From Thermoplasmatota archaeon (GTDB taxonomy: Archaea > Thermoplasmatota > Thermoplasmata > UBA10834): a stretch of DNA of 64,000 bases. Location: contig CAWFTI010000003.1 of the NCBI GenBank assembly GCA_963818745.1, positions 565,876-629,875 of the forward strand. Direction: 5' to 3'. Positions within the stretch are counted from its first letter, which is position 1; each line of letters begins with the position of its first letter. Below the pieces are notes generated by a model. That model saw nothing but the letters and a program-made list of their open reading frames with translations, was not told the DNA's origin and did no database searches. Positions 50,525 through 54,255 of this stretch are shown here, in pieces. Made by a program: the position numbers and the translations under genes.

Positions 50525-52533
50525 CTACGTCTTCCCGACCAGTTTCAGGAAGGCCTCCTCGTCGAGGACCGTCTTGCCCATGCTCTTGGCCTTCGCGAGC
50601 TTCGAGCCCGGGTTCTCCCCCGCGACGACGTAGTCCGTCGCCTTCGTCATCGAGGACCCGACCTTCCCTCCGAGGGACTCGACCAGCGCCTGAGCGTCCG
50701 GCCGACTCATCGACTTGAGCTCCCCTGTGAACAGGAACACCTTGCCCTCCAGGGGGCCCTTCGCCCTGGCCGCGGCCTCCATCTTGAGCCCGGCCTTCCG
50801 GAGCTGCTCGACCAGCCCGCGGTTGCTTGGATCGTCGAAGAATGACCGCACCGCGTTCGCGACGATCTCGCCGACACCCTCGACCTTGGACAGCTCCTCG
50901 GCCGTGGCCGACGAGAGCCTGTCCATGCTCCCGAAGGCGTCCGCCAGCGCGCCCGCCGTGGTCCGCCCCACATGCCTGATGCCGAGGGCGAACACCACCC
51001 TGTCGAAGCCGCGGCCGGCGCTCTCCCTGATGGCGCGCAGGATGTTCTCCGCGCTCTTCTCGCCGACGCCATCCAGGGCCTGCAGGTCCTCCGCCCTGAG
51101 GGCGTAGAGGTCGGACACGTCCTTCACGAGGCCTTTGTCCACGAGCTGCTCGACGAGCGCCGGACCGACGCCCTCGATGTCCATCGCGTCCCTGCAGCCG
51201 AAGTGCGCGATCCGCTCCTTCACCTGGGCGGGGCAGGAGGCGTTCACGCATCTCCTCACGGCCTCACCCTCCTCCCGGACGGTGTTCGAGCCGCACACCG
51301 GACACTCCTTCGGCATCGCGAACTCCCTCTCCGAGCCCGTCCGCCTCTCGACTATGGGTTTGACGACCTGGGGTATGACCTCGCCCGCGCGCTCGATCAG
51401 GACCTGGTCCCCGATCATGAGGCCTCTGCGGTGCACCTCGTCCTCGTTGTGCAGGGTCGCCCTTGAAATGGTCACGCCCCCGACCTCGACGGGCTCGAGG
51501 ACCGCCACCGGGGTGAGCGCGCCCGTCCTGCCGACCTGGACCAGTGATGTCGAGGAGCTTGGTGGTCATCTGCTTCGGAGGGTACTTGTACGCCACCGCC
51601 CAGCGAGGGTTCTTCGCGGTGTAGCCCAGCCGCTCCTGCTGCTCGATCGAATCGACCTTCACGACCATGCCGTCGATCTCGTACTCGATCTCCTCGCGCC
51701 TGGACCCCCAGGAGGATATGTGCTCGAGGACCCCGTCTATGGAATTGAACCTGCGCGTGTGCGGGCTCGTCCTGAGCCCGGCGGCCTTCATGGCGGCGAG
51801 GCAGTCGCTGTGCGTCTTCGGCATCCCGCCCTCGCTGTAGCTCAGCGTGTAGAAGAACGCGTCCATGGGCCTGGACGCCGCTATCCTGGGATCGAGCTGT
51901 CTGATGGACCCGGCCGCGGCGTTCCTGGGGTTGGCGAACAACGGCTCCCCGGCCTTCTCGCGCTCCTTGTTCAGCTTCCGCAGGCCCTGGGTGGGCATGT
52001 ACACCTCCCCCCTGACCTCGGCCGTTCTGAGCCCGCCCTCCGGCTTGAGCCTTGAGCGGTATGCTCCTGATGGTCCTGATGTTGGATGTGACGTCCTCGC
52101 CGACCCTCCCGTCCCCCCGGGTGGCGCCTCTCGACAGCGAGCCGTTCTCGTACAGCAGCGCGATGCCGAGCCCGTCGATCTTCAGCTCCACGACGTACTC
52201 GACCTCTTCCCCCCCGAGCCACTTCCGGACCCTCGCGTCGAACTCCTTCAGCTCATCGGCGGAGTAGCAGTTGTCCAGGCTGAGCATCGCGACCCTGTGC
52301 TCCACCTGCGGGAACTCATCCATGGGCTTACCCGAGACCCGCTGGGTGGGGGAGTCGGGGAGCACCAGGTCCGGGTGCTCCTCCTCCAGGCCCGACAGCT
52401 CCTTGACCAGCATGTCGTACTCGTAGTCCGATATCTCGGGGTCGTCCTCGACGTAGTACCTCTGGTCGTGGTACGAGACCTTGTCGACCAGCTCTCGCAT
52501 GCGCTTCCTGGCACGCTCGCGCTCGTCGCTCAT
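50525..52533 (-). CDS. ligA: NAD-dependent DNA ligase LigA; frameshifts at ~52060 and ~51540
   Basis: Ia domain at the N-terminus; adenylation motif KIDGL ([11 protein letters not shown]); OB domain; Zn finger CPVCGS...C; HhH; C-terminal BRCT (KVFLFTGEL). The three ORFs 51472-52533, 51264-52004 and 50525-51508 are colinear. Confidence 0.85.
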
Positions 52534-54255
52534 GCGGTCCTCCGATGAAAGTGCTTCGCTAAGTCCTTTCCGCTGAGGGTGTTGAGCACGTCCTCGTTCT
52601 CCAGCCAGCCCCTGCGGGCGGTGATGACGCCCAGCCTCATGTGGTCCATGTGGTCGACGCTGTGCGAATCTGTCCCGATCGCCACCTTGACCCCGTGCTG
52701 CTTGGCGAGCCTGCAGTTGACGTCGTTCAGGTCCAGCCGGTCCGGGAACGAGTTGACCTCCATCGCCACGCCCGCCGAGCGCGCCGCGTCAAGAACCTTG
52801 TCGATGTCGAACTCGTACGGCACCCGCTGGCCGATCAGCCTGCCGGTCGGATGGCCCAGGATGTCGACGCTCCCCGACTCGACCGCGGCGACGATCCTCC
52901 TTGTCATCTCGGCCTTCTCCATCTTGAACCGCGAGTGGACCGATGCGATCACGATATCTAGGTCGGACAGGAGCGCCTTCGGGAAGTCCAGCGAGCCGTC
53001 CGCCTTGATGTCCACCTCGCTCCCCGCGAGGACAGATATCCTTCCTCCGGCCGTCTCGCCAGCCTTCCTGACCTCCTCGATCTGCTTCGCGAGCCTCTCG
53101 GGCGACAGGCCGTTCGCGATCCTGAGGCTCTGTGAATGGTCCGTGATCGCGACGAACTCGTACCCGCGCGACACCGCCTCGGCGACGACCTCCTTGATCG
53201 TGTCCCCGCCGTCGCTCCAGTTCGTGTGCACGTGGAAGTCCCCCCGCACCCGCTCCTGCTCGACCAGCACCGGCAGCCGCCCCTCCCTCGAGGCATCTAT
53301 CTCGCCGTCGTTCTCCCTGAGTCTCGGGCGGGATGTACCTCAGCCCCAGCTTCTCGTAGACCTCCTCCTCCGTCGCGCCTGCGACCATCTTCCCCGAGTC
53401 GCGTTCGAACAGGCCGTACTCGTTGAGCTTGAACCCCAGCTCGGCCCCGAGCCTGCGCAGGGCCACGTTGTGCTCCTTGGACCCGGTGAAGTACTGGAGC
53501 GCCGCGCCGAAGCTCTTGGCCTCTACCGCGCGGATGTCGACCTGGAGTCCGTCCCTGAGCCTCACGCTGGACTTCGTGGGGCCCTTCATCAAAACCTCCT
53601 TCACATCTGGATACGAGACGAACTTGTCCATCACGGCGGCAGGGTCGTCGTCCCCGACCAGCAGGTCGATGTCCCCGACGGTCTCCTTGCCCCTCCTCAG
53701 GCTCCCTCCGATGCTGACCCTGTCGAGCCGGAGGGAGGACGTCAGATGTCCGAGGATCGCCTCCGCGATCGGCAGGGCCTCCCCCAGCAGCGTCCTGCCG
53801 CCCTTCGATTCGAGCGTGCGGATGCCCTGGAGTATCTTCTCCTCGGACTTCTCGCCGAACCCCTTGATCCCGTGGAGCCTGTGGTCCATGACCGCCTGCT
53901 TGAGCTGCTCCACGGACGATATGCCCAGCTCCTTGTGGAGGATCATCGCGGTCTTCGGGCCGACGTCCGGAACACTGAGCAGCTCCACGAGGCCCGGAGG
54001 CACCTCGCCCCTCAGCTCCTCGAGGTACCGCAGCTTCCCGGTGTCGACCATCTCTAGGATCTTCTTGGCCATCGCGTCCCCCACGCCAGGGATGTCCTTG
54101 AGGCGGTCATCTGCCGCGAGCTCCGCGATGTCCTCCTCCAGCTGCTCGATGTTCCTGGCCGCGCGCCTGTACGCCTGAGGCTTGAACGCGACCCCCTGGA
54201 GGTCCAGCAGGTCGGCGATCTCGTAGAACACGGCCGCTATGTCGTACTTGTCCAT
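52530..54255 (-). CDS. polX: DNA polymerase X (Pol beta-like polymerase domain plus C-terminal PHP domain); frameshift at ~53310
   Basis: N-terminal HhH/polymerase-beta domain ([34 protein letters not shown]) and PHP domain ([16 protein letters not shown]). Its stop overlaps the ligA start (ATGA). Confidence 0.85.

Follow-up and report, generated by a model that had tools for sequence, protein, structure and literature searches.

Results

polX and ligA overlap at an ATGA junction behind a putative archaeal promoter

Two adjacent genes, polX and ligA, lie on the minus strand of the 64-kb stretch of DNA analysed here (the window). The polX gene (52530..54255) begins with an ATG at 54255 and ends in a TGA stop codon at 52532-52530. 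The ligA gene (50525..52533) begins with an ATG at 52533-52531 and ends in a TAG stop codon at 50527-50525. Thus, the ligA start codon overlaps the polX stop codon in a 4-nt ATGA junction (52530..52533, minus strand). Comparing 13 relatives, we found ATGA at this place in 12 of them; the remaining one (L002) has TTGA. The junction TGA lies in the polX frame in each relative, as judged by locus coordinates, and the polX and ligA gene calls of L037 and L038 likewise overlap by 4 bases. Because the overlap is kept in 12 of the 13 relatives, we regard it as not due to chance.

Within the 3′ end of polX, 5 nt before the ligA ATG, lies a Shine-Dalgarno-like GGAGG motif (52539..52543, minus strand), and the relatives carry a purine-rich GGAGG, GGGGG or AGGAG at the equivalent place. 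The two genes share a strand, their stop and start codons overlap, and relatives conserve the arrangement, as expected of an operon. Since the ligA ATG overlaps the polX TGA with GGAGG just upstream, ligA would be translated by coupling to polX.

Upstream of polX, a BRE/TATA-like element, GAAACATATATTC (54294..54306, minus strand), is found about 40-50 nt before the ATG. L001, L002, L005-L012, L037 and L038 keep its consensus, AAAC-N-TATATTC, at the same position; L003 and L004 have a degenerate version, and in L036 part of it is hidden by Ns. This element is the putative archaeal promoter of polX. A second conserved element, GGGGATTTGGAG (54274..54285, minus strand), is located downstream of the TATA box and ahead of the start codon. 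It is kept across clade members as GGATTTGGA or, in some of them, as GATTTCGA, and probably marks the transcription-start region or an operator. A GGAGGT Shine-Dalgarno motif (54259..54264, minus strand) precedes the polX ATG by 3 nt.

The window shares 98.4% nucleotide identity with MGVX01000018.1, a scaffold of 'Euryarchaeota archaeon RBG_13_61_15', and the relatives of the contig carry the names Thermoplasmata or Thermoplasmatota. It encodes an archaeal-type valyl-tRNA synthetase (ValRS; PRK13208), a dimeric GlyRS, ThiDN (PRK08573), Rad50, two DUF835 proteins and one tRNA-Gly. The initial annotation had recognized this archaeal context and had still allowed that the contig might be bacterial; the classified relatives and the archaeal markers speak against the latter. 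We therefore assign the contig to an archaeon, and its host to an uncultured Thermoplasmata archaeon related to RBG_13_61_15 at the strain or species level.

Three single-base insertions interrupt the two genes in this assembly

Reading polX through in the window takes two frames (54255 to about 53323, then to 52530), and reading ligA takes three (52533 to about 52052, to about 51546, and to 50525). The open reading frame list accordingly gives pieces of 512 and 246 aa for polX and of 353, 246 and 327 aa for ligA. Each break is a +1 shift caused by one extra base on the minus strand. The polX base (53321..53323, with a 3-nt ambiguity) falls between the thumb and PHP domains (…YIPPE|LRENDGE…). 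In ligA, site 1 (52050..52052) lies in the adenylation domain (…IPLK|LKPEG…) and site 2 (51545..51546) where the OB domain begins (…LLDIT|VQVGRTG…). GC3 switches phase at 53320/53321 in polX, and at 52050/52051 and 51544/51545 in ligA. The gene pair was correctly placed in the initial annotation, which overlooked the three inserted bases. An exact look-up of the frameshifted PolX and LigA products, and of CopA and a flavodoxin, gave no recorded protein.

We compared these sites with nine independent contigs (NCBI, ENA, JGI and Logan) that are 96.3-98.8% identical to the window. The polX site and ligA site 1 are each spanned by five of these contigs (L036, L037, L038, L043 and L044), none of which has the extra base, and ligA site 2 by six (the same five and L040), again all without it. 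The polX and ligA genes of the relatives are single uninterrupted ORFs. Deleting one base per site restored full-length PolX and LigA with their catalytic residues intact, and the repaired genes (1725 nt for polX, 2007 nt for ligA) have exactly the length of intact orthologues. Aligning the window with L037 over 20.7 kb, we counted 12 single-base insertions and 1 deletion. Eight of the 12 insertions break seven different genes, and insertions of the same kind also occur in intergenic DNA. All verified frameshifts in the window are in the +1 direction. The ValRS gene carries three of them, at about 23630, 23729 and 24072, and further sites lie at 41305, 43231, 48333, 55198 and 56271. Because near-identical contigs do not have the extra bases and similar insertions hit many other genes, the three breaks are almost certainly assembly errors and not marks of pseudogenes.

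The repaired genes encode a canonical PolX and a bacterial-type LigA

Once the inserted base is removed, PolX is a family X DNA polymerase of 574 aa with a C-terminal PHP domain. Its Pfam domains are HHH_8, HHH_5, palm, thumb and PHP (PF02811 at 53.7 bits), which bears out the Pol-beta and PHP domains named initially. The protein scored 545 bits against the NF006375 equivalog (cut-off 426) over profile positions 2-569 of 571. It aligned end to end with Thermus thermophilus PolX (3au2; both about 575 aa) over residues 4-568 with 508 bits. The Thermus residues D198, D200 and D243, which we take to be catalytic, align with D195, D197 and D240, leaving the DxD…D palm triad intact. With this triad, the protein is what Prostova et al. 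(2022) term a 'canonical' PolX. The PHP motifs HVH, DH, E, H, H and DSH (TDSHS) align with the metal ligands of the Thermus enzyme. Compared with the T. thermophilus and Bacillus subtilis enzymes, the present PolX, known from its sequence, differs in having an archaeal host and a gene linked to ligA in an operon.

LigA is an NAD-dependent DNA ligase of 668 aa after removal of the two inserted bases. All canonical domains that had been listed for it were recovered by Pfam in the repaired protein: Nlig-Ia, adenylation, OB, C4 Zn finger, HhH and BRCT. The Nlig-Ia match (PF22745) stands at threshold, with 27.1 bits against a cut-off of 27, while those for OB, Zn finger, HhH and BRCT (PF03120, PF03119, PF12826/PF14520 and PF00533) all exceed their cut-offs. 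The N-terminal domain Ia, which binds NMN/NAD+, separates NAD-dependent from ATP-dependent ligases. Its segment here aligns with E. coli LigA (2owo) and retains Y22, D32, Y35 and D36, residues whose roles we assume from the E. coli enzyme. The two proteins have an identical domain architecture and align end to end (640 bits, 47.7% identity); K115 of E. coli LigA aligns with K118, in the KxDG motif ELKIDGLG, and the four Zn cysteines are conserved along with the domain Ia residues. Unlike the bacterial ligA genes examined, the present one sits in an archaeal host behind an archaeal-type promoter and overlaps polX by 4 nt.

LigA scored 880 bits against NF005932 (cut-off 369; profile 1-663 of 664) and 838 bits against TIGR00575 (cut-off 444). 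Against the lineage-specific equivalog NF010931 (PRK14351), perhaps that of haloarchaea, it reached 705 bits, under the cut-off of 1051. It shares 98% identity with the uninterrupted LigA of RBG_13_61_15, and the nearest homologue is already labelled LigA in public records. Identity is 71-98% within the clade and 40-48% for the best bacterial matches, which are scattered over many phyla. In a plasmid collection, the best 25 of 258 records were all bacterial, at 45-48% identity. By these matches, we classify LigA as a bacterial-type NAD-dependent ligase. PolX showed 41-46% identity to bacteria and haloarchaea alike in the same collection; being roughly equidistant from both, it allows no donor to be named. 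The pN/pS values of polX (0.12-0.23) and ligA (0.14-0.15) place both genes under purifying selection.

The polX-ligA pair is shared by the Thermoplasmata clade

Examining gene order, we found polX directly upstream of ligA in all 12 species-level Thermoplasmata loci and near ligA in none of 23 bacterial ligA loci. The pair belongs to a syntenic block of about 14 genes (bla … polX-ligA-Znrib-APH-coil-CopA-ThiS-FKBP-PAP2-GT4), and both of its flanks are syntenic with 10-12 Thermoplasmata species. The comparison of codon usage and GC with neighbouring genes, suggested initially, came out host-like: relative synonymous codon usage (RSCU) of polX-ligA correlates with that of the other window genes at r = 0.988, and GC3 is 0.927 versus 0.910. 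The codon usage of polX-ligA is that of the host. Because the gene pair, the junction, the promoter and the synteny are clade-wide, no bacterial equivalent was found and the codon usage is host-like, we consider the cassette old in the clade and vertically inherited, not recently transferred. An ancient bacterial origin of LigA is likely.

Discussion

The observations are best read as a chromosomal polX-ligA repair operon of Thermoplasmata that is ancient and vertically inherited, encodes a bacterial-type LigA, and is interrupted here by three non-biological single-base insertion errors of this assembly. We hold this reading with considerable confidence. One BRE/TATA promoter upstream of polX would drive both genes. 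The PHP domain of characterised bacterial PolXs acts as a 3′-5′ exonuclease, 3′-phosphatase and AP-endonuclease. By analogy with the biochemistry of the bacterial PolX and LigA families, the PHP domain would clean 3′ ends, the Pol-beta-like core would then fill short gaps, and LigA would seal the resulting nick with NAD+ through a K118-AMP intermediate. The two proteins may thus complete base-excision or single-strand-break repair by carrying out its last two steps.

The above arrangement raises a question of whether LigA does more than repair. It might have replaced the archaeal ATP-dependent ligase as the main or sole replicative ligase of the clade, and PolX-LigA might also take part in Okazaki-fragment maturation. 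All members of the clade retain LigA, which is highly conserved among them and subject to purifying selection, and an ATP-dependent ligase domain was found in none of the scanned ORFs of the window. Moreover, MG-II, another Thermoplasmatota lineage, apparently has an NAD-ligase without a detected ATP-dependent ligase, where the X in Table 3 of Borrel et al. (2014) stands for absence or an incomplete genome (PMC4153887). However, the window gives a 64-kb view of a genome of about 2 Mb, Haloferax carries both ligase types side by side (PMC3914693, PMC7470946), and a strict pattern search found no PIP-box-like motif in LigA or PolX. We therefore consider such a role possible but rather doubtful. 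The stricter claim, that LigA displaced the archaeal ATP-dependent Lig1 and became the sole DNA ligase of this widespread uncultured Thermoplasmata clade, permanently coupled to PolX, is somewhat less likely still. If it were true, an otherwise archaeal replisome based on PCNA, PolB and PolD would rely on a bacterial NAD+-dependent enzyme to complete Okazaki fragments and repair patches. The clade offers a concrete genome set, including OY970070.1 (1.98 Mb, from which L009 comes) and a 1.86-Mb contig, for asking whether an archaeal replisome runs on a bacterial ligase alone.

It is very unlikely that polX and ligA are genuine pseudogenes, the repair module having been inactivated by real frameshift mutations in this strain. 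The given sequence does carry three frameshifts, and the inserted bases are not within long homopolymer runs; errors away from such runs are unusual for Illumina or nanopore. However, an insertion-only pattern recurs at no fewer than 12 sites in many unrelated genes. With three breaks in the essential ValRS and many other genes hit, such mutations would be incompatible with a viable cell if real. The low pN/pS values also argue against decay, removal of the three bases leaves both genes free of in-frame stops and other decay, and none of the near-identical contigs spanning a given site has the insertion. Assembly error, at a rate of one insertion every ~2-3 kb, means that any 'pseudogene' or 'split gene' call in the window needs checking against relatives.

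A recent transfer of a bacterial polX-ligA cassette, or a bacterial or chimeric contig or region, is even more improbable. LigA is of bacterial type and is matched by the NCBIfam LigA equivalogs, and both proteins are 41-48% identical to bacterial proteins. Against this stand the identity of 71-98% in the clade versus at most 48% to any bacterium found, the Thermoplasmata synteny on both sides, the conserved archaeal BRE/TATA promoter, a codon usage indistinguishable from that of neighbouring genes, and the 23 bacterial ligA loci with no polX nearby. The initial annotation had proposed a transferred bacterial module and had itself set vertical inheritance within the lineage against that proposal; the clade-wide pair in 12 of 12 Thermoplasmata, with its long synteny, points to the latter. 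Because the whole clade keeps ligA joined to polX, a bacterial-type LigA in an archaeon is by itself no sign of contamination or recent transfer.

Programmed +1 recoding, by ribosomal frameshifting or transcriptional slippage, as a regulator of PolX and LigA synthesis can practically be dismissed: every shift is indeed +1, but the sites (GAG-A-CTC, CTCAA-G-GCTC and ATC-A-CTG) have no common motif and are missing from all close relatives, which carry each gene as one ORF, and the same type of shift is found in intergenic DNA.

We compared the locus with known systems. Haloferax volcanii LigN is likewise a bacterial-type NAD-ligase of ultimately bacterial origin in a euryarchaeon (PMC3914693, PMC1684257). 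By description rather than by sequence comparison, the present case differs in belonging to Thermoplasmata, known from non-halophilic aquifer, sediment and soil MAGs. The initial view that archaeal NAD-ligases are known solely from haloarchaea does not hold. Borrel et al. (2014) listed an NAD-ligase in MG-II and 'Ca. M. alvus' (PMC4153887), and Williamson and Leiros (2020) described a second cluster of archaeal ND-ligases, which has 64 nodes, comes from uncultured Euryarchaeota and is separate from the Halobacteria cluster (PMC7470946). MG-II (Poseidoniales), 'Ca. Methanomethylophilus alvus' and this second cluster resemble the present clade in being Thermoplasmatota-related and non-halophilic and in having a bacterial-type LigA (PMC4153887, PMC7470946). 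The present clade probably lies in or beside the second cluster. The NAD-ligase of M. alvus is described as a recent transfer from Prevotella, whereas ligA here is old and present throughout the clade.

The conserved coupling to polX is unmentioned in these two studies (PMC4153887, PMC7470946) and in the PolX neighbourhood survey with its supplements (PMC9226535); searching those supplements, we found no PolX/NAD-ligase or Thermoplasmata entry. The survey does report that a canonical archaeal PolX is associated with a nick-sealing ligase in Methanomicrobia (Prostova et al. 2022, PMC9226535). There the partner is an ATP-dependent archaeal ligase, in contrast to the NAD-dependent LigA found here (PMC9226535). 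By analogy, the linkage in both groups suggests a repair module that fills a gap and seals it. The polX-ligA coupling would then be a second archaeal case of a repair module made up of polymerase X and a ligase, now with an NAD-ligase. The haloarchaeal PolX, in contrast to that described here, is reportedly associated with a Mut7-C RNase and not with a ligase (PMC9226535).

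Single-base insertions break polX and ligA in the window

On the minus strand, polX starts at ATG 54255 with GGAGGT upstream, and the LigA-like frame closes at the TAG 50527-50525. The ligA ATG (52533-52531) and the polX TGA (52532-52530) overlap in a common ATGA. The coordinates and overlap in the initial annotation are correct, because the starts, stops and ATGA sit where it placed them. It described genuine genes, overlap and domains, but in the window sequence the reading frame of each gene is broken. In a mechanical ORF list, ligA is spread over three frames as 52533-51472, 52004-51264 and 51508-50525, and polX appears as two pieces (54327-52789 and 53270-52530). 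We located the frame changes with a GC3-phase hidden Markov model, which works well in this window because coding GC3 is about 0.9. The phase switches at 53320/21 in polX (…YIPPE/LRENDGEID…) and at 52050/51 (…IPLK/LKPEGGL…) and 51544/45 (…LLDIT/VQVGRTG…) in ligA. Translating all frames across the three points, we find that the protein resumes after one skipped base at each switch.

The closest protein in a 5.8-billion-protein set is an intact 668-aa LigA from 'Euryarchaeota archaeon RBG_13_61_15' (98% identity). A scaffold of that genome (L036, MGVX01000018.1), with 98.4% DNA identity to window 42920-54297, has exactly one base fewer at each of the three polX/ligA sites; the same holds for 48333 and 43231. 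Six further contigs (ENA, JGI and Logan), which share 97.9-98.8% identity with the window, were retrieved through exact matches to the protein of the neighbouring 244-aa gene. A JGI metagenome pattern scan, which accepted either state of one site (with or without the insertion), added two more contigs (96.3% and 98.5% identical), and both lack the insertions. None of the nine near-identical contigs carries an insertion at a site that it spans; five span the polX site, five the first ligA site and six the second. In two of them, L037 and L038, the gene calls give an intact PolX (574 aa) and LigA (668 aa) overlapping by 4 bases.

Over 20.7 kb compared with L037, the window has one deletion and 12 single-base insertions, eight of which disrupt seven genes, namely PAP2 (41305), a ThiS-like protein (43231), a 744-aa coiled-coil protein (48333), ligA (twice), polX, LD-carboxypeptidase (55198) and a DUF835 membrane protein (56271), and the same breaks are seen against more distant relatives too. 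Single-base insertions also affect a PAS/GAF sensor protein (about 62580-62609, near 62590, judged against more distant relatives) and the gene downstream of it (about 63705). From 41305 to about 63705, the insertions at these sites are missing from the near-identical contigs wherever such contigs are available. All verified shifts in the window are in the +1 direction. The valyl-tRNA synthetase (23217-25856, minus strand) is readable only via three successive +1 changes (about 24072, 23729 and 23630). Since the last of these returns to the starting frame, the ORF appears intact at 880 aa despite its out-of-frame middle.

Pseudogenisation is very unlikely given this insertion-only pattern, which strikes essential, otherwise well-conserved genes every ~2-3 kb. 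Therefore, judged from the sequence comparisons, the frame breaks are almost certainly an assembly or consensus artefact specific to the window's assembly. Once repaired, both genes have exactly orthologous lengths, with pN/pS of 0.12-0.23 for polX and 0.14-0.15 for ligA.

At 4062-5669 (plus strand) of the window, one ORF carries peptidase M28 and C-terminal NUDIX domains, with several GC3 phase changes at 4721-4862; it may be two genes joined by insertion errors and not a real fusion. The polX of MAG MFD00709.bin.2.183 (L003, 7390-9085) also lies in two frames; the probable cause is an assembly error in this public genome too. In L036, the opening 1.2 kb (4-1188) has its match 45 kb away, at window 8325-9698, in the opposite orientation and with an identity of only 85-92%. 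Either the two are paralogues or the scaffold was misjoined across an N-gap.

Once repaired, PolX and LigA are canonical and complete

When one base is deleted at each frame change, PolX comes out at 574 aa and LigA at 668 aa. PolX contains HHH_8, HHH_5, palm, thumb and PHP domains and has a full-length match to the PolX equivalog of NCBIfam (545 bits; cut-off 426). Its residues 4-568 align with T. thermophilus PolX (3au2), keeping the DxD…D triad (D195, D197 and D240) and the PHP metal-binding motifs. All the LigA domains claimed initially (Ia, adenylation, OB, Zn-finger, HhH and BRCT) were detected in the repaired protein, which reaches 880 bits with the LigA equivalog, where the cut-off is 369. 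Its alignment with E. coli LigA (2owo) runs from end to end, and both the KxDG lysine (K118) and the Ia residues are retained. By these matches, both repaired proteins are canonical and complete.

The polX-ligA pair appears old within an archaeal clade

The initial annotation suggested, as one of two options, that the pair might be a notable transfer of a bacterial cassette. We find instead that polX lies immediately upstream of ligA, on the same strand, in 12/12 of the clade's GTDB species representatives that a LigA search recovered, and that a block of about 14 genes surrounding the pair is common to at least 10 relatives; DUF835 also occurs in this block. Among the 13 relatives checked, 12 have ATGA at the junction and one has TTGA, with a purine-rich motif just upstream. 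PolX and LigA identities in the relatives (62-78%) are similar to those of neighbour genes, and the codon usage of polX plus ligA matches that of the other window genes (r = 0.988), which does not point to foreign origin. Outside the clade, the best LigA identities among the matches listed are 40-48%, spread across Clostridia, Proteobacteria, Planctomycetes and further groups. Among the PolX matches listed, bacterial and haloarchaeal proteins both fall at 41-46% identity. Examining the flanks of 23 bacterial ligA loci, we found polX near none. The conserved order, junction, promoter, synteny, codon usage and distant outside matches indicate that the pair is old and vertically inherited within the clade. 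LigA itself is bacterial in type, with no nameable donor; the polX linkage either arose within the archaeal lineage or was brought in from a donor that has not been sampled.

The other option raised, a bacterial contig, is excluded by the near-identical RBG Euryarchaeota MAG and by the next relatives (LigA identity 71-78%), all named Thermoplasmata, Thermoplasmatota or Methanobacteriota archaeon. The gene content likewise marks the contig as archaeal and the host as an archaeon with LigA: ValRS exceeds the PRK13208 model cut-off, and the window also encodes a dimeric GlyRS, a ThiD-ThiN fusion, Rad50 (archaeal models best-scoring) and, as first reported, two DUF835 proteins (56230-57384, plus strand; 59720-60355, minus strand). 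One of the two has an N-terminal multi-pass membrane domain.

NAD-dependent ligases are known from several archaeal groups

Confining archaeal NAD-ligases to haloarchaea, as was done initially, is too narrow. Besides LigN of Halobacteria (PMC3914693, PMC1684257), they are documented in MG-II and 'Ca. M. alvus' (PMC4153887), and a separate 64-node NAD-ligase cluster comes from uncultured Euryarchaeota (PMC7470946). In Methanomicrobia, the PolX gene is associated with an ATP-dependent ligase (PMC9226535), whereas the partner in the window is a NAD-dependent LigA; the supplements of that paper do not mention Thermoplasmata or a NAD-ligase neighbour of PolX. The locus thus combines known kinds, and its only mildly new feature is that PolX and LigA(NAD) are paired, with putative translational coupling, across the whole clade.

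No ATP-dependent ligase domain was found in the ORFs scanned across the 64-kb window, and in Table 3 of Borrel et al. (PMC4153887) MG-II appears with a NAD-ligase and without a detected ATP-dependent one, where X denotes absence or an incomplete genome. Because of these two observations, replacement of the ATP-dependent ligase by LigA in the clade is plausible, though we consider it rather unlikely. The window's only other gene named 'ligase', a LigT-like 2′-5′ RNA ligase/phosphoesterase (35472-36032, plus strand), is unrelated to DNA ligation.

A shared promoter would drive both genes

Upstream of polX, most relatives carry AAAC-N-TATATTC, then GGATTTGGA, then a Shine-Dalgarno motif. The first two elements, at 54274-54306 (minus strand) in the window, form a conserved region upstream of polX in L001-L012, L037 and L038; AAAC-N-TATATTC, which is degenerate in L003 and L004, is a putative archaeal BRE/TATA. 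This single promoter would drive polX-ligA, and ligA translation would be coupled to polX termination. If characterised bacterial PolXs are a guide, the PHP domain would remove mismatches or blocks at 3′ ends, and short gaps would be filled by the Pol-beta core, activities discussed in PMC2566882 and PMC9226535. LigA would then seal the nick with NAD+, and these steps would form the end-game of base-excision or single-strand-break repair.

Downstream of ligA, two more genes lie on its strand. The first (49488-50399) encodes a 304-aa protein with a Zn-ribbon and a helical part, which matches no Pfam family and is present in 10/10 relatives with downstream flank; the second (48690-49424) encodes a 244-aa APH-like kinase, present in all eight with longer flank. 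Both may belong to the polX-ligA transcription unit. Further upstream of polX lies a second conserved element, CATAA(A/G), which resembles the TATA box of a divergently transcribed neighbour gene; in the window and in L001, this neighbour is LD-carboxypeptidase.
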